Notes under the pieces: model-generated
Told to the model about the DNA's origin: nothing
Database searches by the model: none
The model's input: the letters and a program-made list of their open reading frames with translations, nothing else
NCBI GenBank assembly: GCA_951406725.2
Contig: OX597832.1
Span: 60,140,001-60,204,000 of the forward strand
DNA length: 64,000 nucleotides
Source: Octopus vulgaris
Lineage: Eukaryota
Direction of reading: 5' to 3'
Shown here: positions 13,936 to 64,000 of the stretch, in pieces
How positions within the stretch are numbered: the first letter of the stretch is position 1
Layout of the letters: each line of letters begins with the position of its first letter
Position numbers and translations under genes: made by a program

Positions 13936-14470
13936 CGTACATATGTATGATTTTGTATATCATTCTCTCTGCGATGAAAAACTAAATACTTTGAATGAAA
14001 AGAAATTTTGAAAAGAAGGGAAAAAAGGGATAATTTACAGATCACACTAACATCGGAAACACATTATTGCAAAAACAATTTTTGATAACTAAAATCTCAT
14101 TAAACACGTTTTAATTATTACGACCAAAAAAAAAAAAAAGCACAGCGAATTGAAAACTTTAAGCGTTTTTTTTTTTAAATTATCACCAAAGATTATTTTC
14201 AAAAAAATAACCCAGAAAATATTATAAGCAAACAAAATTTATAATGATATAATTAATTAGAATTTTAATATGTTTCGCCAGGTAATTAAGTTGACATTTT
14301 GATTCGGCTTGATTGTTTTTAATTGTATAAACGGTGACTCAATTTCGCGACTGGAGTCATCATAGTACGGCATCACGTTTGAAACATCAGCAAAATATTG
14401 AAGCATTTGTTATGAAGTGTCCAGGGATCAAGCCCCATATTCGGTAACAAAAGTACTTTTTGTATTTTAC

Positions 14471-14618
14471 ATGTGAGCAATTTGTGAGCATTAAGAGGAT
14501 ATTTTAACAAATACACTGTCAATGATATGTGTGCGCTTGTGTGTGTAATACACAAACACACACATATTGAGAGTGTTTGTGCTAAAATATCCCCTTAATG
14601 TTCACAAATTGCTCACAT
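14471..14618. repeat. Imperfect foldback (~65-bp arms)
   Basis: atgtgagcaatttgtgagcattaagaggatatttta vs taaaatatccccttaatgttcacaaattgctcacat; ORF track shows LKYPLN.HKLLT on both strands. Confidence 0.8.
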
Positions 14619-14631
14619 ATAATATATATAT

Positions 14632-14840
14632 ATCTATTTACTACCCACAAGGGGCTAAACATAGAGGGGACAAACAAGGACAGACAAACGGATTAAATCG
14701 ATTACATCGACCCCAGTGCGAAACTGGTACTTATTTAATCGACCCCGAAAGGATGAAAGGCAAAGTCGACCTCGGCGGAATTTGAACTCAGAATGTAACC
14801 GCAGACGAAATACTGCTAAGCATTTCGCCCGGCGCGCGAA
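14632..14840 (-). mobile_element. SINE family A
   Basis: Reverse complement of family A, 5'-truncated. Confidence 0.85.
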
Positions 14841-14863
14841 ATATAATATATATAGACAGACAT

Positions 14864-15046
14864 AGGAGTGGCTGTGTGGTAAGTAGCTTGCTAACCAACC
14901 ACATGGTTCCGGGTTCAGTCCCACTGCGTGGCATCTTGGGCAAGTGTCTTCTGCTATAGCCCCGGGCCGACCAATGCCTTGTGAGTGGATTTGGTAGACG
15001 GAAACTGAAAGAAGCCTGTCGTATATATGTATATGTATGTATATAT

Positions 15047-15107
<61 letters not shown>

Positions 15108-15300
15108 TCCCCCTAGCATTGCATGACAACCGATGCTGGTGTGTTTACGTCCCCGTCACATAGCGGTTCGGCAAAAGAGACCGATAGAATAAGTAGTGGG
15201 CTTACAAAAAGAATAAGTCCCGGGGTCGATTTCCTCGACTAAAGGCGGTGCTCCAGCATGGCCGCAGTCAAATGACTGAAACAAGTAAAAGAGTAAAAGA

Positions 15301-15301
<1 letters not shown>
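14864..15301 (+). mobile_element. SINE family B, near full length
   Basis: ggagtggctgtgtggtaag head, internal (TG)n, tail (gtaaaaga)2. Confidence 0.88.
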
Positions 15302-15342
<41 letters not shown>

Positions 15343-15346
<4 letters not shown>

Positions 15347-16083
15347 TAAGCAATTAAGGGTTTAGCAACGAATTGCCTTACCGCACACCGAATTTAGAAA
15401 TAGCAGTCAAAGAGATTATAGCTATTTCTTCTACTAAAAGGGAGATCTCAGTAAAAACACAGCATTTGAAAGGCAAACACAAACAGGTAAGAGAGAATGA
15501 ATTAACGGCAATCTATCATACAGTTTTAAGTCACCTACGGACGTACGTTTCGAGATCAAGTCTTAGGAAAGCATAAGAATTAGATAATTCTACCTTACCC
15601 ATACTTCTTCTCTCATCAGCGCAGGATACAAACAATCATGAATGATTGTATATTGAATTTTGAGATACTAGAAGGCACCAACTCAACTCAGTATCAGAGC
15701 GAGCTAGAAGCCACAGCTAGTATCACCAAATTCAAAGTGTGAATGAAAGTTTGTGTCACCAGTCTTTTCCCACCCGCGTGTAGCCAAGACAAAGTGCTGT
15801 GGTCATTTACTGGGATGAATATGGTTATCAGTAACAATGAAGGGTGAAATTAATTAATTTGGAATAATTATCAATTACACCAAGTAGTCTTCGGCATGTA
15901 AAAGCCTCATTCGAGGAAAATTTAAGTAATACTAAGCAATTAAGGGTTTAGCAACGAATTGCCTTACCGCACACCGAATTTAGAAATAGCAGTCAAAGAG
16001 ATTATAGCTATTTCTTCTACTAAAAGGGAGATCTCAGTAAAAACACAGCATTTGAAAGGCAAACACAAACAGGTAAGAGAGAA

Positions 16084-16088
<5 letters not shown>
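15343..16088 (-). mobile_element. Retrozyme / Penelope-pLTR-like non-coding element: 586-nt unit with 160-bp direct terminal redundancy, inserted in (TA)n
   Basis: 15343-15502 appears identical to 15929-16088 (ORF track repeats MPYRTPNL... at 15373 and 15959); (TA)n on both flanks; contains canonical HHR. Confidence 0.8.
15534..15625 (-). ncRNA. Canonical type I hammerhead ribozyme with long stem II
   Basis: Minus strand CCTGCG-CTGATGA-GAGA...(extended hairpin)...TCTC-GAAA-C-GTAC-G-TC^CGTAGG; stem I 6 bp (one G.U), palindromic loop III, GUC cleavage between 15540/15539. Confidence 0.9.
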
Positions 16089-16130
<42 letters not shown>

Positions 16131-16133
<3 letters not shown>

Positions 16134-16405
16134 TTTTGTTTGTTCCTTCTCGAGCACCGCCTGGCTCATAGGGCCACTTTCCCGGTTTCCTTGGCGTATA
16201 GGTTCCCCACCTGGACGGGAGGCAAGTCTGTCGCAGGTGAGCCGCAAGATGCAGGAGGAAAGAGTGAGAGAAAGTTGTGGCGAAAGAGTCAGCAGAAGTT
16301 CGCCATTACCTTCTATCGGAGCCGCGTGGAAATTAGGTGTTTCGCTCATAAACACACACATCGCCCGGTCTGAGATTCGAACCCGCGATCCCTCTAGGCC
16401 ATGTG

Positions 16406-16408
<3 letters not shown>
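16131..16408 (-). mobile_element. SINE family C variant (V-domain-like 3' part)
   Basis: B box gggttcgaatctc; body shared with 18595 and 32647 copies; cctgcgacagacttgcctcccgtccagg segment. Confidence 0.75.
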
Positions 16409-16472
<64 letters not shown>

Positions 16473-16491
16473 GATATATATATATATATAT

Positions 16492-17123
16492 ATACATGCC
16501 TCACGCTAAGAGGGACATCAGTCATTTCTACCAAAAAATCATACCCAATGCAATTTTTCAAAGCAAGACATTTAAAAAAATGAATTTAGTCTTGTATCAC
16601 CTGTGATTTCGCACTTACCGCAGAGTTGCGACCATGCTCATCAGCAAGACTGATTCTGAACATATCATAAATAAACGACCAGTACCGTCAAAGTCGAACA
16701 GCCATCTGCTCTATTCCAACGAAGCACATGGAGAAGCTTACATATCATACATCCGGTAAATGGCGGGCTTCTTCGAATTGCATTTCGGGTAGGAAAAGTT
16801 TTTTCGGAATAAATTTAACAATTAAGGATAACTTCTTAATAAGGAATCTTAACAAGAAATTATCAGGTAGATAGCGTGAAAGACCTCATAAGAGAAAAAT
16901 TTCGAAAATAATTCTTTCTTATTGAACATATTAATTTATATATAGAGGGCATTATTATACATACATGCCTCATGTATGTATAATAATGCCCTCTATATAT
17001 AAATTAATATGTTCAATAAGAAAGAATTATTTTCGAAATTTTTCTCTTATGAGGTCTTTCACGCTATCTACCTGATAATTTCTTGTTAAGATTCCTTATT
17101 AAGAAGTTATCCTTAATTGTTAA

Positions 17124-17129
<6 letters not shown>
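16492..17129 (-). mobile_element. Retrozyme / Penelope-pLTR-like element: 469-nt unit, 12-nt redundancy, 159-bp perfect inverted repeat, inserted in (TA)n
   Basis: atacatgcctca at 16492 and 16961; arms 16809-16967 and 16971-17129 with 3-nt spacer; (TA)n on both flanks; canonical HHR inside. Confidence 0.8.
16588..16651 (-). ncRNA. Canonical type I hammerhead ribozyme
   Basis: Minus strand AGTCTTG-CTGATGA-GCAT-ggtcgcaactctgcggtaa-GTGC-GAAA-TCA-cagg-TGA-TA^CAAGACT; stem I 7 bp perfect; AUA triplet, cleavage between 16595/16594. Confidence 0.9.
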
Positions 17130-17173
<44 letters not shown>

Positions 17174-17484
17174 TTTATAAAACATACAATTGTTTCGGCA
17201 AACAGCCAGCATTATATAAATGCTGCTTGAAACATTATATAATCTTTTTAAAACTCCTCATCAGTGTTCACCAAAGAAGAGAATCAATAGTCTTAAAAGC
17301 TATATATATTCCTGTTATGCAAATTATCAACAACATCGCTGACGATACAAGTAGTAAGAGATAAACAAACAAATCACAGAAATTCAAAGCAATGCCTTCC
17401 TCCAAATCGAAGTAGGCCGATACTAACCATTTATTTCAGCCCCGCACTATTGCCAACATATACAATAGAGAGGAGGGAAGGGGA

Positions 17485-17530
<46 letters not shown>

Positions 17531-17624
17531 GAGAGAGAGAGAGAAATAAAAGAAGGGGAAGCAAGAAGTTTGTAACGAATGTCAGGTCTCTCTTATATCA
17601 TATTCACTATTTGAATCACTCAAA

Positions 17625-17770
17625 AAGGCGGCGAACTGGCAGAAACGTTAGCACGCAGTTCTGAGTTCAAATTCCGCCGAGGTCGATTTTGCGCACTGGG
17701 GTCGATCTAATCGACTGGCTCGGCTCCCTCCCTAAAAGTTTCGGGTCTTGTGCCTAGAGTAGAAAAGAAT
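17625..17770 (+). mobile_element. SINE family A, internally deleted (alternative tail)
   Basis: aaggcggcgaactggcagaaacgttagcacg...gagttcaaattccgccgaggtcga...gtgcctagagtagaaaag. Confidence 0.75.
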
Positions 17771-17889
17771 ATTTTAACCCCTAAATAAAAGAAATACGTT
17801 TGTGTCTATACGTTGCTTGATCTTGAGGTTTGAAGTGTCAAATGCTTTAATACTTCAGGCCTTGGTTATAAACTTCATGCTTACCCTCA

Positions 17890-18310
17890 CAAACACTACA
17901 ACTACCACTATACCACTACTACTGCTACTACAACCATTAAAAACACCACTACCACCACCATCACTATCACCATCACCACTACGACCATCACCACTATCAC
18001 TATTACTACCACCACCATCACTACCACCACCATCACTACCACCATCACCACTACCACCATCATCACCGCTACCACCATCACCACTACCACCACCACTAAC
18101 ACTACTACTACTACTACTAAAACCATTGCAATCACCACTGCCACTACCACAAGCACTGCCAATACTACCCCAAACGCAACTAACAGCATTAGTACTACCA
18201 CCACTACTACCACTACTACTAACACCGCTACCACCACAATCACCACCGTTCCCTTCACCATAACTATCACCAACACCACCAACACCACCACTATCACCGC
18301 TATTACCAAT
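17890..18310. repeat. Degenerate (ACC/ACT/ATC)n trinucleotide tract
   Basis: Direct reading; explains Pro-, Gly/Ser- and Val-rich ORFs. Confidence 0.85.
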
Positions 18311-18594
18311 TCTTTCTAAATCGGAGAACTTCGAAACATGGAACAATTTATAATTAGAAACGAGAAAATAATTCTTCACATTAATTAGATATTCCAACAT
18401 CAAAGCAAAATATATATTCAGCCGACTAACCGTTACCAAATATCGAACACACTGACGAGACAACACCTGGATAAGGCTAGGTTAGAAATAGCAGGTAAAT
18501 AATCGCTTCTACAGCAACACCTTACTGGTTTTATGGAACTTCTGTAGACATGTTCAGTGGTTGTACATCAACAACAACAACAACAGCAGCAGCG

Positions 18595-18785
18595 AAGGCG
18601 CAATGGCCCAGTGGTTAGGGCAGCGGACTCGCGGTCGTAAGAACGCGGTTTCAATTCCCAGACCGGCCATTGTGAGTGTTTATTGAGCAAAAACACCTAA
18701 GCTCCACGAGGCTTCGGCGGGGAGGGGTGGTGAACCCCGCTCTACTCTTTCACCACAACTTTCTCTCACTCTTTTTTCCTACTTC
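18595..18785 (+). mobile_element. SINE family C, 5' half
   Basis: aaggcgcaatggcccagtggttagggcagcggactcgcgg (tRNA-like A box), ggtttcaattcc B-box-like; matches 32650. Confidence 0.8.
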
Positions 18786-19084
18786 TGCCACAAAGCAGAG
18801 GAACCATGGTGTAACCTACTATGGTGTGGTAAACTTTCAGATCCCAGTCTAGATTGCGAATCCTCTGTACCCCAGGAGGGTTCAGCTCTCCACCCGTTAA
18901 AAGTCACCGTTTACGGAATGAGGATAACAACGTAGCTTTCGCGCCAGTGCAACCGCCAGTCTATCGCGTGTGGTAGAAGAAGAAGAAGAAGAAGAAGAAG
19001 AAGAAGAAGAAGAAGACAGCAGTTGCAACCACAACAAGAAGATTCGTTAATCTAGCGAAATGACATCGAATGAGTATAACAAAC

Positions 19085-27090: not shown

Positions 27091-27792
27091 GGCTGTTCTT
27101 TGTTTCTTAATTCATTCACTAGATTGCGCCCATGCTGGAGTGCACACGCATGATATCGTATTAATGACAATGTCGACCTCATTATGTAATTTCTTGTTGT
27201 GGGAAAATATAGATTCATACATATGTATGCGTGTGGGTGGCTGGGTGTGTTAATAAATAACAGAAAAAAAAGTGTTTCGAAATCGCCTTCATTAAATTAC
27301 AGCCGTTTCGACTATAATGAGCTGTGGATGCAAAGCTGAGTGCCAATGTGACACCCTAAAGCTCCCTCTTTGGTTTATATTGACGAAGAAAGTTTTTAAG
27401 TGTACAATTGTGCAACTGTTTTAACATTTCATGTAAAGGCTCCGTCAAAGTTAAAGGATATGACACAGGCATTCATTTCCGGATAGACAGTGCTTTATAA
27501 CCGAAACAGCTGTAACGTAATGACGGCAATTAACTTCTCATCGATTGTCACTCAATAATATATATATATATATGTGTGTGAGAGTGAGTTGAGTGTGTGT
27601 AGGTATCGAAAGATGTGTATATGAATAATAGGTAAACACGTGTATGTTCTTGTATATTATAGACAGAAATAGATAAATCTATATATAAGTATGTACATAC
27701 ATACGCGCCTATTCAGTTATTATGTATGTGTGCCTATATATATATGTGTGTGTGTGTGTATGTGCGCGCGCGTGCTTTCAGAATACTTAGAT

Positions 27793-28486
27793 CGATAGAT
27801 AGATTTCTTTATTGGCCACGTAGGGTTGAACACAGAAGGGACAAAATACAAAGTAGATCTTTTCGTTTGGGGAAGAAGAGAAGGAAAAAAGTCTAATTCC
27901 GATCAAAAGGGATCGTGAGAAATAATAAAAGTGGGGCCGATCAATAGGGATCGTGTATCAGAGAAATGTCAATGTAAAAAGGGAAAACAGATTAGGCATG
28001 TCCATGGATAGAAAAGCCTAAGGAAAAGACCACATGAACCTTGGGCAATAGTGTCATGCAAAAAGAAAACACGTAACAGTAAGTGGCTCTCTTTTATCCT
28101 TTCGTTTCTCCTTTCTTTTTTAGTTCATAGGATTATGCTCAAGCTGGCTCCGTCATTCACACGTGCCGTCCTTGCTACATTCACCCATCTTTTTTTGAAA
28201 CAGTCACTGGACAAAATTTCCCTCTCTACACTCACCTTTGTCCTCGAGTGTTACTTGAAGAAGTTGATGAGAGATTGACAAGAGAAGAAAGTGTTTGTCT
28301 GTAGACATTTCAGACGCGTCCACCATACACATTCTTTCGCCATAGCCGCAAGTACGATGAAAATGGCTCCTCCTTCCCATTTCAAGGAACGAGGCGCGAC
28401 AATATTCACGATAGACTCGGTTGATAAACTGACTCGTCCCACACGCGATAGTAGTCGTTCGACATAGGCCCACAGGTCGGAAATGG

Positions 28487-32646: not shown

Positions 32647-33035
32647 CTGTGGAGGCGCAATGGCACAGTGGTTAGGGCAGCGGACTCGCGATCGTAGGAT
32701 CGCGGTTTCGATTCCCAGACCGGGTATTGTGAGTGTTTATTGAGTGAAAACACTTAGAGTCCTACAAGGCTCTGACAGTGGGTGGTGGTGAACCCTGCTG
32801 CACTCTTTCACCACAAATTTCTCTCATTCTTTCTTCCTGTTTCTGTTGTACCTGTATTTCAAAGGGCCAGTCTTGTCACACTCTGTGTCACGCTAAATCT
32901 CCCCGAGAACTACGTTAAGGATACATGTGTCTGTGAAAAGCTCAGCCAATTGCACGTTAATTTCACGAGCAGGCTGTTCCGTTGATCGGATCAACTGGAA
33001 CCCTCATCGTCGTAACCGACGGAGTGCCACGATAG
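32647..33035 (+). mobile_element. SINE family C, full length with 9-bp TSD
   Basis: tRNA-like head ggcgcaatggcacagtggttagggcagcggactcgcgatcg...ggtttcgattccc; TSD actaaactc at 32638-32646 and 33036-33044. Confidence 0.88.
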
Positions 33036-33838
33036 ACTAAACTCATATTCGCTCTACAGTCAAGCAGATATGCTTGTAAGGAGAATTGTATAAAGACTGG
33101 TTTTTCGATAAAATATGAAGAATTAACCTCATTAATATTGAGGTATTTAGTTTATATTTTTCACCTTTTGTATTTTATTTCAATATTTTGTCTCGATATT
33201 AACTAATCGGCAGATATTAAATAATCGATAGATACCGCATAATCAATATTTAATTTGATTTTAAAGACGTATAAAGTCTGTCTATATTTTTCCCCTACTC
33301 GTGGCTGTTAATATTATAGTGTTAATTTACGGCTGCGACTATATATGATAAATATTAATTTGTATTCAAGCATACACCTTAGGTTGAGATATTTAATAAA
33401 TTGTTTTTTAAAAAATAATAATAACGAGCATTTCAAGATCAAAAACATAACGGCCATTATGTCTTTATTAACATATATATGTATTGTATTACATTAATTA
33501 ATATACTTTAATATACGTATTGTATGTTTAAAAATCAATATTTTTTTATTATTTTGACCAGTTGTATCTTCTACCACTTTCATGCAGCACCGAGTCTGAT
33601 TTGATTAATAAAATCTTCGCTGTTCATGGTCTTCAACCAAATTCTTTGATTCTGTTGTATGGTAAAATATTGAAGTGAATGTTGTTTTGAACTGACAGCT
33701 CAAAGGGCATACGTTCAAATTTCTAACTGATATTTCGTTGGGTGTGTATTAGAAAATTGCCATTCTCTCAGCCGGTTACAAGTTTATTCGTCATCTTATT
33801 GTTACTGTTATTTATTTTATGTTTCCTTTTATCATTTT

Positions 33839-34050
33839 CAGCGTGGAAGGTGTTTATAAGCTATTTAAAACACACACAAAAATCGTTAGATTCACTTCAA
33901 CATTTAAATTTAATTTGCCAAAATATTTTCGTCTGTGAACAAGTCGCGGTCTCAAAGCGACGAAAATATTTTGGCAAATTAAATTTAAATGTTGAAGTGA
34001 ATCTAACGATTTTTGTGTTTTTAAATGGCTTATAAACACCTTCCACGCTG
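33839..34050 (+). mobile_element. Foldback element (~93-bp arms) with G3-C8 HHR-like centre
   Basis: Arms 33839-33933 / 33959-34050; centre gtct-GTGAACA-A-GTCGC-ggtctcaaa-GCGAC-GAAA-ATAT-TT-tggc. Confidence 0.7.
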
Positions 34051-35758
34051 CAATTGTTTTTGTTCTAGCACACGATCTCAGATCATGTCACTTGCTGTGC
34101 AAGTGCATCTCCATTATCATTTTCGTTTTCTTTATATTCTGTTTTCTTTCATTTAATTTGATATTTTGAAAACTATGCGGAATATTTGAACTTGAAAGAA
34201 AACGAATTAAAAATATAACGACTATGTAAGATATACATACGATATACACTTTTATATTTTTCTTAGTTCATCCACTAAATTCATTTGCGAATGTTATCCG
34301 TCTCTGTTTAACATACTTTTCTGGAAATAAACTTCTTCCCATCTATTTAATACAATAAAACTGGAATTAAGTTCTTTAACTTAGGAAACCGTTTTCTGAT
34401 AGAGATTTGATTAAACACCACCATCACAGCATTGTTTTCGCATCCAAATAAAAGAGTCCTTCTTTTGCGGGGCTGTTTTAATTGGACATGATACTCGCCG
34501 TTATCTTCTATCCAGGGTCAGAGTTATTTCACGTCTTGTAGCACAGGCATGGACAAAATGCTTCAGAATTTTAATTCGCGATAATAAAGCAGTCTGTCAT
34601 TTTGGGTAAATGCTTTCTAAAATAAATTCAGAATCATCCTCGAGTCTTGCGAGTGAAAATTATTTGACAGAAACTGTGTTGAAGCCCATCAGGTAGATTG
34701 GACATGTAATTCAAAAGGCTCAGTTTTGTGATATATAAAATCACGCTAATTCTATCTCAGAATGTTTCCTTTTTAATTAGTAATGAAACAGAAATATGAG
34801 AAATTATTCCAAATCAAAATAATATAAAAATTTCTGGGAGTCCAAAAAGAATTTGACCTTCTTTTCCTCGACTGTAAAAAAAAAAGGGTGTTGTTTAAGT
34901 TATCGTCTGTTAAATGTATTGTAATAACATCTGCTAAAAATAATAGAGATAGGAGTAAGAGAATCGAAGTAATTCTTATTAGAGATCATGCAAATGGAGC
35001 CAAATGATAAGAAATATGTCTACGGAATACACAACCACTTTAACGTAAATTTAACGAATTGTTATATTAACTTGTTCACTAGACCCAATAACGAAAGACT
35101 CATCGTCGAAACCGACGGAGAACCCATCAAATTTCACATCTGTTTATGACTTCTGAGACATCCACTGTAAAAGAACCAACGGCCATTTGGAATCTTCCAG
35201 AGAAAAGAGGAAGGAGAAAAAAAACATTTAAAAAAAACAAACTAAAGGATTAGCGCATCTTGACAAGAGACAAACTGCAGTACTTGCTGACAGAACACAA
35301 ACCGCAGCAAGTCATTTAATACGAACCTGTGACCCTTCAGTTAATAGGCTGACCCTCTTAGCAACTCGACCAGCTGCGACGCTGCTTTCCATGTCATATA
35401 GAAAGAATATTCAAAACAATGGTAATTACGTGTCGTACAAGAGTTTTATATCGTAGTTCTTCAAGGTATAGCGTTGTTCTCTATGACAAACTTATATGGC
35501 TGCCTTGACTGTTTGATGACGGACATTTTTATTCCTTTTGTTTTTTAGCATATATCTTTTATACAATCTATTGATATGTAAGGTTGCGTATACATATGTC
35601 TGTGTGTGTGTGTGTATGTGTGTATGTATACATATGTAAAATGCATGCGTGTGTACGCACGCTCACGCGCACACATATGCATGCGCACATACACACACAC
35701 ATATGTACTTGTCAATGTTGATGTGTGCATATGGGGCGTTTCTTCTACAAAGTTGTTT

Positions 35759-37582: not shown

Positions 37583-37609
37583 AGGTTGAAAAGGAGCGCA
37601 TGAGTTGAT

Positions 37610-37786
37610 ATATATGGAAAAGAAAGTCAAGGTAGAAAATGCTGAAATAATTTTATAAAAACCATTTCACTACCGGTTTCGGTTATTGAGACATTTATAC
37701 AGTTGAAAAAGTCCCAATGACTGAAACCGGTACTGAAATGTTTTTTATAAAATTATTTTAGCATTTTCTATCCTGACTTGTTTTTC

Positions 37787-37790
<4 letters not shown>
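37610..37790 (+). mobile_element. Foldback element (~80-bp arms) with U3-A8 minimal HHR-like centre, in (TA)n
   Basis: CATTT-ata-CAG-TTGAAAA-AGTC-ccaat-GACT-GAAA-CCGG-TA^CTG-AAATG at 37692-37740; arms tagaaaatgctgaaataattttataaaaa / tttttataaaattattttagcattttcta. Confidence 0.75.
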
Positions 37791-37846
<56 letters not shown>

Positions 37847-47891: not shown

Positions 47892-48410
47892 ACTGTTCTT
47901 AACTGATTGGAAGTGTTATCATGTACATTGTTTTGTCTTGGTATAAAAGATGGGTTACAGCAAATATTCTACTCAGTACCACAGAGTTGCTTGTCAGTTG
48001 TTTGACCATTACCTGTTGAGCATGTCCCTTAGTGCCTGACGATATGTCCATCTCTGATCACGAGCAGAAGTAGCGGGGAAGCATCATAGCCATGTGTTGA
48101 GTGGAATTCTTTGGGATTTGGATAATTCACCTTCGGAAACATGAGTGTTTCGTTCAACATCCTTAAACAACCCTTATTCAGGGACCTTTTGAACGGGGTG
48201 GGTTACTCCACCTGAAGAAAATTCTAACTGGGCCCCACCTGCAAGGTCATGCACTGTTTATCTTGATATGAGATAACCATGTCGCGCACATATGGTTGTG
48301 ATGCAAGCGGCTAGTGTACCCTTATCAGACGGGTAGTCATGATGGGTATACTGGGCTTCGTATATCTTAACCCAGTGTCACTTTCATGGCATGCACTGCC
48401 CTCTCACTCA
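47892..48410 (+). mobile_element. (TAA)-tailed retroposon 3' fragment, copy 1
   Basis: Collinear with 51036-51502; ends gcatgcactgc.ctctcactcaat followed by (GAT)(AAT)n. Confidence 0.7.
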
Positions 48411-48422
48411 ATGATGATGATG

Positions 48423-51009: not shown

Positions 51010-51035
51010 GATAAATAAATAAAAGGGCTACAGTG

Positions 51036-51515
51036 GTGTAAAAGATGGGTTACAGCAAATATTCTGCTCAGTACCACAGATTTATTTGCTTGTCAGTTTC
51101 TTGACATTAACCAGTTGAGCTTATCTGATGGTATGCGCATCTCTAATCACGAACAGAAGTAGTGGGGGCGGGCATCATAGCCTTGCTTTGAGAGGAATTC
51201 TTTGGGGTTTGAATAATTCACCTTTCGAAACATGAGTGTTTCGTTCAACATCTTTAAACAAACCTTATTCAGGGACCATTTGAACGGGATCGGCTACTCG
51301 ACCTGAAGAAAATTATAACTGGGCCCCACCTGCAAAGTTATGTGCTGTTTATCTTGATATGAGATCACCATGTCGCACACATATGGTTGTGATGCATGTG
51401 CCTGGTGTACCCTTATCAGACTGGTAATCATGATGGGTATAATGGGCTTTGTATATTTGTACCCAAGTCTCACTTTGATGGCATGCACTGCTCTCTCACT
51501 CAATAGTAATAATAA
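51036..51515 (+). mobile_element. (TAA)-tailed retroposon 3' fragment, copy 2
   Basis: Collinear with 47940-48410. Confidence 0.7.
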
Positions 51516-59315: not shown

Positions 59316-59840
59316 CAATATACATATATATATATATAAGACTGTGTGTTTATATGTTATATATATATATATATAGTATCTCCTGTATACACGAACGTGT
59401 TATGCTGTTGCAATTTTCTCGATAATCAATCCATAAACATGTTTAAACCTTTTCTTTCTTTCAATGCATATTTTAAATGAGTTTTCCCTTGTTGTTTTCG
59501 ATATCGCCATTTCTTTTTTTTCTTTCCGGTAACTGCTTGGGTTATCAAAAGCCGCGCTGTTATTTGCAGCAACATATATCCACACCTGATAGTTTTTTCT
59601 ACTCTCTCAGCCATAATAATATTATCTTTTAGATGAGTAACTAAACTGTTGGAGACATACACACACATACACATGCATACACATACACACATATATGCAC
59701 CCACATACATACACGCACAAATATATACACCCACATGCACATATATATACTCACCTACATACACACATGCACACACACAGACATACACACACGCACACGC
59801 AAAGAAGCACTCGTATTATATAAATATATTATATATAAAT

Positions 59841-59875
<35 letters not shown>

Positions 59876-60042
59876 ATGTATATATGTATACATATATATA
59901 TATATATAGATATATATATGTATACACACACACACACACATATATATATATTCATGCATGTACATGTATATACATATATACCTATCAATGTCTTTGTGTG
60001 TGTAGGTATGTACGTATACATCCATACACACATACATATATA

Positions 60043-60148
<106 letters not shown>

Positions 60149-63224: not shown

Positions 63225-63297
<73 letters not shown>

Positions 63298-63299
63298 TG

Positions 63300-64000
63300 T
63301 TTCTTTATTAGCCACACAGGGCTGCACACAGATAGAACAAATTACAAGGTAGAGCTTTTCTTTTGGGGGTAAAAAAAAGGGGGGGGCGATCAAAAGGTAT
63401 CGTAAAAGGAAATTGATCAATAGGGATCGTTATCACAGAAATGTCAATATGAAGTGTAAAGGGGAGGACAGGTGAGGTTTACCCGTGGAAAGAAAAGCCT
63501 ACGGAAAAGACCACGGTAACCTCGGTCAATAAAGTCACATGTTATATTTCTTTTTTTTTTTTTTTTTTGCAAATAAGCAACTCTCTGTATTAATTTTTAC
63601 GGTTCATAGAATCATAGTCAAGGTGGCTTCGTCATTCATACGTGCCATTCTTGCTACATTCACCCATCTTTTTTTAAAACATTCACTAGACAAAACCTGC
63701 CTCTCTACTCTCACTTTCCTCTTCAAGTGATACTTGAAGAAGTTGATGAGAGATTGACCAGAGAGGAAAGTGTTTGTCTCTAATCCTTTCAGGCGCGTCC
63801 ACCAGATACATTCTTTCGCCATAGCCACAAGTATGATAAAAATAGCTCTTCCTTCCCGTTTGAAGGAAGGAGGCGTGACGATATTAACGATAGACTCGGC
63901 TGATAAACCGACACGTCCCACACGTGACAGCAGTCGTTCGAGACAAGCCCACAGGTCGGAGATTGTTGGACACTGCACGATTGCGTGCAGAACGGTTTCG
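63300..64000 (-). mobile_element. Tx1/L1-like LINE 3' end (ORF2 C-terminus open 63604-64000, runs off window)
   Basis: ETVLHAIVQCP..SDLW (end of CCHC knuckle) ...AMAKECIWWTRLK...FKKRW; 3' UTR ends aataaagaaac followed by (TATC)n. Confidence 0.85.

Follow-up and report, generated by a model that had tools for sequence, protein, structure and literature searches.

The insert at 16492-17129 of the window, which is the whole 64-kb stretch of DNA analysed here, is probably (we put it at roughly 0.78) a monomer copy of a high-copy non-coding hammerhead retroelement with a 469-nt period, that is, of a non-LTR retrozyme, regarded as a non-autonomous Penelope-like element (PLE). The observed parts of this explanation are the anatomy of the insert, the ribozyme motif on its minus strand, the repeated family to which its unit belongs and the head-to-tail continuity of that unit in other copies.

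Anatomy of the insert

A 12-mer on the minus strand occurs in two identical copies (16492-16503 and 16961-16972) at an offset of 469 nt, and the second copy contains the centre of a palindrome whose arms, 16809-16967 and 16971-17129, are complementary at 159 of 159 positions around a 3-nt spacer (16968-16970). The insert is bordered by (TA)n on the left (16466-16494) and on the right (17127-17171). All of these elements had been reported in a first-pass annotation and are confirmed here, with a correction at the centre of the palindrome. The inverted copy had been placed directly after the 12-mer; it is indeed present, but the final 2 nt of the second 12-mer already belong to its arm, and the spacer sits within that 12-mer. 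At both outer junctions 3 nt can be read equally as (TA)n letters or as insert, on the left at the start of the 12-mer and on the right at the end of the right arm; the surely duplicated sequence therefore amounts to 7-12 nt and the arm to 156-159 nt. The left target tract proper (16466-16491) forms the last part of a (CT)n(CA)n(TA)n compound microsatellite, and the right one has 22.5 copies of the dinucleotide; no strand is assigned to either tract, to the left arm or to the spacer.

As the hammerhead lies on the minus strand, the RNA's 3' end maps to 16492, and the palindrome forms a head-to-head inversion at the 5' end of the element. The unit occupies 16492-16960 of the minus strand, has a GC content of 35%, and its period is backed by the head-to-tail joints described below. 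The left arm is the 5' part of the unit copy, the second 12-mer is an overlap into the next period, and the right arm, on the plus strand, is the inverted 16809-16967, head-to-head with the unit. The spacer forms a 3-nt loop closed by a 2-nt pairing (16966-67 with 16971-72), which is the putative fold-back point.

The unit contains no reading frame of at least 90 aa, and its one complex frame (67 aa) has no Pfam match. A second copy of the 469-nt unit was not found within the 64-kb window. Plant LTR retrozymes have type III hammerheads in two LTRs and a 4-bp target duplication, whereas the insert has a single hammerhead of type I and no long direct repeats. A MITE was considered and rejected, since the inverted repeat is found at one end of the insert only, without terminal inverted repeats at both ends. 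Exact-pattern scans of viral, metagenome and prokaryote contigs gave no match to the insert, as expected for an animal repeat, and a tRNA scan was likewise negative; a bacterial promoter scan, which is not applicable here, stayed below the shuffle level.

The hammerhead motif

The motif at 16588-16651 is a type I hammerhead on the minus strand, a strand that the first-pass annotation had left unstated while placing the motif itself correctly. The 7-bp stem I and the AUA triplet (16597-16595) that it had named are both there, and the descriptor scan finds the full catalytic core, together with a 4-bp stem II, which carries a 5-bp extension hairpin, and a near-palindromic stem III. Self-cleavage is predicted between 16595 and 16594; this bond is intact in the copy and lies 103 nt from its left end. 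Two hammerheads in the window pass the strict descriptor, compared with none in 100 of 100 dinucleotide shuffles. The Rfam hammerhead search that had been recommended as a check fails as such: although the motif is present, none of the Rfam hammerhead families reaches its gathering score in the window, and none is among the 48 matches at E<=10 in 14500-18500. Sub-threshold Rfam matches of miRNA type on the palindrome were set aside as generic hairpins.

The active hammerhead fold is predicted to be less stable than the best fold, by 2.1 kcal/mol for the core and by 3.2 kcal/mol for the circle, in which stem I has a predicted probability of 0.05. Folded as a circle on the ribozyme strand, the 469-nt unit is 69% paired (z -4.1 against 60 shuffles), and the linear unit on the same strand folds at z -4.9, values to be read against a background in which 3 of 28 strand-tiles also reach z <= -3.5. 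Six family substitutions are listed inside the ribozyme. They spare the core; three fall in the loop of the stem II extension, and the other three fall in stems, where the pair is kept in 3 of 3 cases. Taken by itself this is weak evidence (p about 0.16 for transitions), and it refers to the listed substitutions, with 6 further rows outside the listing. One low-depth contig of a sequencing run (X8, see below) jumps from 16623 to 16766, with a loss of 142 nt including half of the ribozyme; its short side has 23 letters, and the jump is uncertain.

Copies of the family in public sequencing runs

A search of public sequencing runs listed 24 runs (20 with part of the unit; 10 studies). No run with the unit is listed as RNA, though one of those aligned below (X8) may be. 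Four of the 24 were aligned, as assembled contigs, on 16492-16990, a stretch that takes in the unit and the beginning of the right arm but neither microsatellite flank; they come from 4 studies with 3 organism labels, and one of them may be the source of the window. In these four runs, 910, 1020, 679 and 73 contigs align to the unit, figures that are not a copy number. The aligned contigs are mostly 90-99% alike, and 83% of those in run X1 are less than 99% alike. The 469-nt unit belongs to a large, varied, high-copy family, and the existence of related copies, which had been anticipated, is thereby borne out in the contigs of all four runs.

Head-to-tail joints are present in each of the four runs. 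Five of six joint rows leave the unit at 16963 or 16969 and re-enter it at 16502 or 16520; in the four rows at 16969 the intervening letters resemble, by eye, 16501-16519 of the window; a loose end at 16972 in X8 also returns head-to-tail. The rows are given without side lengths, which makes a 31-letter bridging rule uncheckable, and they are good but not fully checked bridges. These joints, which cross the 12-mer in other copies, indicate that 469 nt is a real period and that the 12-mer is a template overlap. A target-site duplication was rejected as the origin of the 12-mer, because other copies continue straight through it.

One X1 contig departs from the plus strand at 16913 and continues with letters that include an exact 18-mer of the minus strand (16680-16663), which is likely a head-to-head inversion in another copy, with other breakpoints. 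In the window, both arms carry letters at 16882 and 16914 that are in the minority among the aligned contigs, which appears to point to one template. Loose ends at 16969 (8 contigs in X3 and 9 in X4, with a mixed consensus at an agreement of 0.78-0.8) hint that other copies end just past there, and this is compatible with a circular template and with a fixed 5' end alike. Cover at 16985-16990 is 24.2 in X3 and 3.05 in X4, with none in X1 and X8, and reflects either a loop-spanning contig or a misplaced piece of the left arm. The summed contig depth has steps near 16810-16845 and at the ribozyme; contig depth cannot rank the parts of the unit.

Proposed origin of the copy

The Penelope-type insertion anatomy that had been recognised from the outset matches the descriptions in PMC8557442 and PMC3846280. 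Of the (TA)n-like tracts among the 469 positions of the unit, the one at the left junction ranks first (11 nt, with rG-dT wobble allowed). When the unit is read as a circle, this tract is found on the plus strand at 16956-16966, which is equivalent to the left junction and is the putative priming site. The copy crosses the ribozyme cut site intact and stops 7-12 nt past one period, and the loop-closing 2-nt pairing is already in the template.

In the mechanism that we propose, a reverse transcriptase (RT)/endonuclease of the PLE type, acting in trans, would nick a (TA)n tract, and the nicked DNA end would pair with the (UA)n-like RNA tract at 16956-16966 and start target-primed reverse transcription. 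The RT would copy 103 nt, pass the uncut ribozyme site and continue for one whole period plus 7-12 nt; the new strand would then fold back on the 2-nt pairing, copy 156-159 nt of itself and join the other (TA)n end via 3 nt of microhomology. Twin priming, in which one RNA molecule carries two primers, would yield an identical product and is indistinguishable here, whereas two unrelated templates for the arms are unlikely because the family varies. As it has only one ribozyme, the copy probably represents a dead end from which no circles arise. The earlier statement that the family uses the same machinery is an inference. An autonomous partner was not found in the window: of 184 complex frames of at least 55 aa, 150 were scanned, and as all of them stayed below the Pfam cut-offs, neither an RT or endonuclease nor a host exon was seen. 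Three sub-threshold Pfam matches all lie outside the element.

A copy of one period plus 7-12 nt through an uncut site implies that the template was a circle or an uncut multimer, or that the RT jumped between templates, and we would split these at about 40/45/15. A more specific reading, which we offer tentatively and consider doubtful, is that the copy is the footprint of an RT on a circular ribozyme RNA, with a (TA)n-paired start, passage over a religated cut site, exactly one turn, a stall 7-12 nt into its own start and a fold-back. An end within 12 nt of its own start has a chance of 3-5% on a linear multimer with uniform stops, which favours the circle; this copy is accounted for just as well by a fixed 5' end, with transcription starting near 16503-16508.

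The insert might instead be a 5'-truncated piece (pseudo-LTR, tail and inverted pseudo-LTR) of an autonomous, ORF-bearing PLE. Such a piece would show the typical Penelope structure, in which a direct pLTR is followed by an adjacent inverted pLTR with a short overlap (15 bp in PMC3846280); truncated copies are also described as more numerous than full ones (PMC4209133), and retrozymes as related to pLTRs (10.64898/2026.07.22.740005). However, the head-to-tail joint rows close the 469-nt period without an ORF in between, and the unit itself has only the 67-aa frame mentioned above, so that we regard a truncated autonomous element as unlikely. It is distinctly improbable that the unit is real and its 159-bp palindrome an assembly or library artefact, that is, a fold-back chimera. 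The complete identity of the arms would fit such a chimera, structures of this kind are known to trouble assemblies (PMC8557442), and a strand-change joint for the palindrome of the window is listed in none of the four runs. Yet at position 16737 all aligned depth in the four runs carries a letter different from that of the window, and the locus is thus probably not represented in these contigs, whose silence on the palindrome therefore says little. Moreover, the mirror symmetry ends after 159 nt at the (TA)n junction with unrelated sequence beyond it, the centre of the palindrome falls exactly at the end of the overlap, another copy has the likely inversion joint seen in X1, and diverged fold-backs, of which five are listed, occur elsewhere in the window (74-87% over 160-300 nt).

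Fold-backs on 2 nt and end joins over 3 nt are left by repair in general, and (TA)n tracts are fragile. The palindrome could have been made at the DNA level after insertion, by a break in the right (TA)n or a replication template switch with hairpin capping and fill-in, and would then be unrelated to reverse transcription. We give this very little weight, as the fold-back point coincides with the 5' end of the element and as palindromes at head-to-head junctions are recurrent in PLEs (PMC3846280), and we retain the monomer copy of a non-coding hammerhead retroelement as the preferred explanation.

Neighbouring elements and the rest of the window

The window is eukaryotic DNA, rich in microsatellites, and contains many dispersed SINE-like repeats. 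A second (TA)n-flanked hammerhead element is located 1 kb to the left on the minus strand (15346-16088) and consists of a 586-nt unit plus an identical direct overlap of 157 nt; its hammerhead (15534-15625) has a long stem II, and its circular fold reaches z -7.2. The view that the two elements represent distinct families stands: the 586-nt and 469-nt units have no exact word of more than 9 nt in common, and their likeness is weak and limited to an AT-rich hairpin region of about 100 nt (15830-15945 against 16815-16915; score 38, 1 of 500 shuffles). They appear to be different families that are perhaps remotely related, and the AT-rich region may be a shared enzyme-recognition region or chance. 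The end of the left element maps to about 16912 of the 469-nt unit, one base from the X1 inversion joint. The outer end of the arm at 16809 had been considered as the usual RT start of the family, on the basis of a 9-mer that lies close both to this point and to the end of the neighbouring element; this idea is weakened, as the end of that element matches the unit better at about 16912 (score 30) than at 16809 (score 24; 25 of 3000 shuffles).

A candidate for a decayed third hammerhead (17180-17269) directly follows the right (TA)n on the same strand. It has an intact core, a palindromic stem III and a weak stem II, and it passes the loose descriptor only, as do 6 of 100 shuffles. All hammerhead motifs of the window lie within 1.75 kb (15534-17269) on one strand, while 57 (TA)n tracts are spread over the 64 kb. 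The probability of such clustering by chance is 0.03 for the two good motifs and 0.002-0.006 for three, and the cluster is possibly an insertion hot spot or the result of serial insertion.

Between the two hammerhead elements lies a SINE-like, non-microsatellite piece of 277 nt (16131-16407), whose right half recurs at 18641-18786 and 32697-32839 (76-78%). Two dispersed repeat pairs, 47939-48412 with 51034-51504 (85%) and 27788-28484 with 63284-63963 (75%), gave neither a hammerhead motif nor a Pfam match. The older, diverged fold-backs are found at 74-330, 14463-14626, 33833-34056, 37608-37795 and 59817-60118; they are 74-87% self-complementary, several are placed beside microsatellites, and they are MITE-like or decayed inversions.

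Age, dsRNA potential and significance

The insertion had been called young on account of its identical arms. These do limit the arm-to-arm divergence to less than 1.9% (95%), or to less than about 2.6 million years by the clock of PMC13282606 provided that the host is an octopus and that there was no conversion, but identity would also fit self-copying, conversion or an artefact, and youth is therefore only loosely bounded. Of the proposal that a transcript would both self-cleave and form dsRNA, the second part applies to either strand, for which a read-through hairpin is predicted at -245 kcal/mol, whereas self-cleavage is predicted only for the minus-strand RNA. If the locus is transcribed through both arms, it would give a perfect dsRNA of 159 bp, a substrate for editing or small-RNA pathways, as is common for inverted repeats.

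The family would be an abundant, apparently undescribed retrozyme-type repeat in what appears, from its SINEs and microsatellites, to be an octopus genome; judged by titles and the beginnings of abstracts in the open-licence literature, no published report of it was found, which is no proof of absence. For Octopus vulgaris, PMC13282606 counts 31 PLE families with recent activity; the word ribozyme does not appear in its available text. For the giant squid genome, 235 hammerhead matches are reported in PMC6962438. The locus is a clean, unmutated integration product, of which both junctions and the loop can be read base by base, and with many copies the alternatives of circular versus linear templates and of self-priming versus twin priming become testable for PLEs. 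The circular-template model is put forward as a hypothesis in PMC7229834 and PMC4209133. If copies of the family generally end one period past their own start, wherever that start is, they would be direct sequence evidence for circular-template integration of retrozymes and Penelope elements, and the junction palindromes of PLEs would be tied to stalling on the circle.

Comparison with known element classes

Metazoan non-LTR retrozymes were defined by Cervera and de la Pena 2020 (PMC7229834), who describe circles in coral, mussel and axolotl and propose a PLE-driven reverse transcription of these circles. Li et al. 2026 (10.64898/2026.07.22.740005) tie retrozymes to the pLTRs of PLEs, report units of 51-972 bp and treat monomers as a class. 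Like these retrozymes, the insert combines a type I hammerhead with a unit that is non-coding, low in GC and a few hundred bases long, a head-to-tail period, a high copy number and a self-paired predicted circle, and dispersed monomers are a recognised class among them. The 469-nt unit is slightly above the 150-450 nt given in PMC7229834 and within the 51-972 of 10.64898/2026.07.22.740005. The sequence features of a non-LTR retrozyme monomer that were tested, namely a hammerhead core, a head-to-tail unit, absence of coding capacity, a GC content below 50%, a repeated family and a self-paired predicted circle, are all found in the insert. An 'active' retrozyme source, in contrast, has at least 2 consecutive units, each with a whole hammerhead (Li 2026), whereas the insert comprises a single unit, extended by 12 nt, and a single ribozyme. 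Its 5' fold-back is not described for retrozymes in the available text of PMC7229834 or 10.64898/2026.07.22.740005. In contrast to retrozymes with demonstrated circles, its circularity and cleavage are predictions from the sequence; among nine predicted retrozymes, Li et al. 2026 report in vitro cleavage for only one.

The non-autonomous PLEs of Chlamys, for example MRC1, resemble the insert in being non-coding, arranged head-to-tail and PLE-driven, with a microsatellite bias in their clade; they differ in that they are green-algal and that canonical hammerheads are missing in most of the clade (PMC8557442). For PLEs more generally, PMC8557442 describes partial tandems, adjacent inverted 5' copies, tails and a (TA)n bias, and PMC3846280 palindromes at head-to-head inverted junctions, for which self-priming was proposed. 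In PMC11167929 the RT is described as starting internally, about 100 nt beyond a hammerhead left uncut, and circular templates were proposed for copies of more than unit length in PMC4209133. The EN+ PLEs (Penelope/Poseidon and Neptune) have in common with the insert a hammerhead in the repeat and a more-than-unit length (PMC3846280, PMC8557442, PMC11167929, PMC4209133). They also have a head-to-head inverted 5' copy with a junction palindrome and an AT-rich or (TA)n target, and a target duplication is not visible. The insert differs from them in that it has no RT or GIY-YIG ORF, in that its overlap is 7-12 nt and not a tail of 30-40 nt, and in that the outer end of its inverted arm falls inside the unit. 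In the anole PLE, as in the insert, the 3' end lies about 100 nt downstream of where the ribozyme cuts; the start site of the anole element, however, is described as not homologous to the cut DNA, whereas priming of the insert seems to be homology-guided.

The 5' inversions that arise by twin priming in L1 are head-to-head and joined by microhomology as well, but their two parts do not overlap, while the insert carries 159 nt in duplicate, a result that requires either self-copying or a periodic template. All parts of the anatomy have already been published for PLEs, and the insert, which falls outside the classes of active dimer loci, autonomous PLEs, LTR retrozymes and MITEs, is a clean example of such an integration product and not a new kind.
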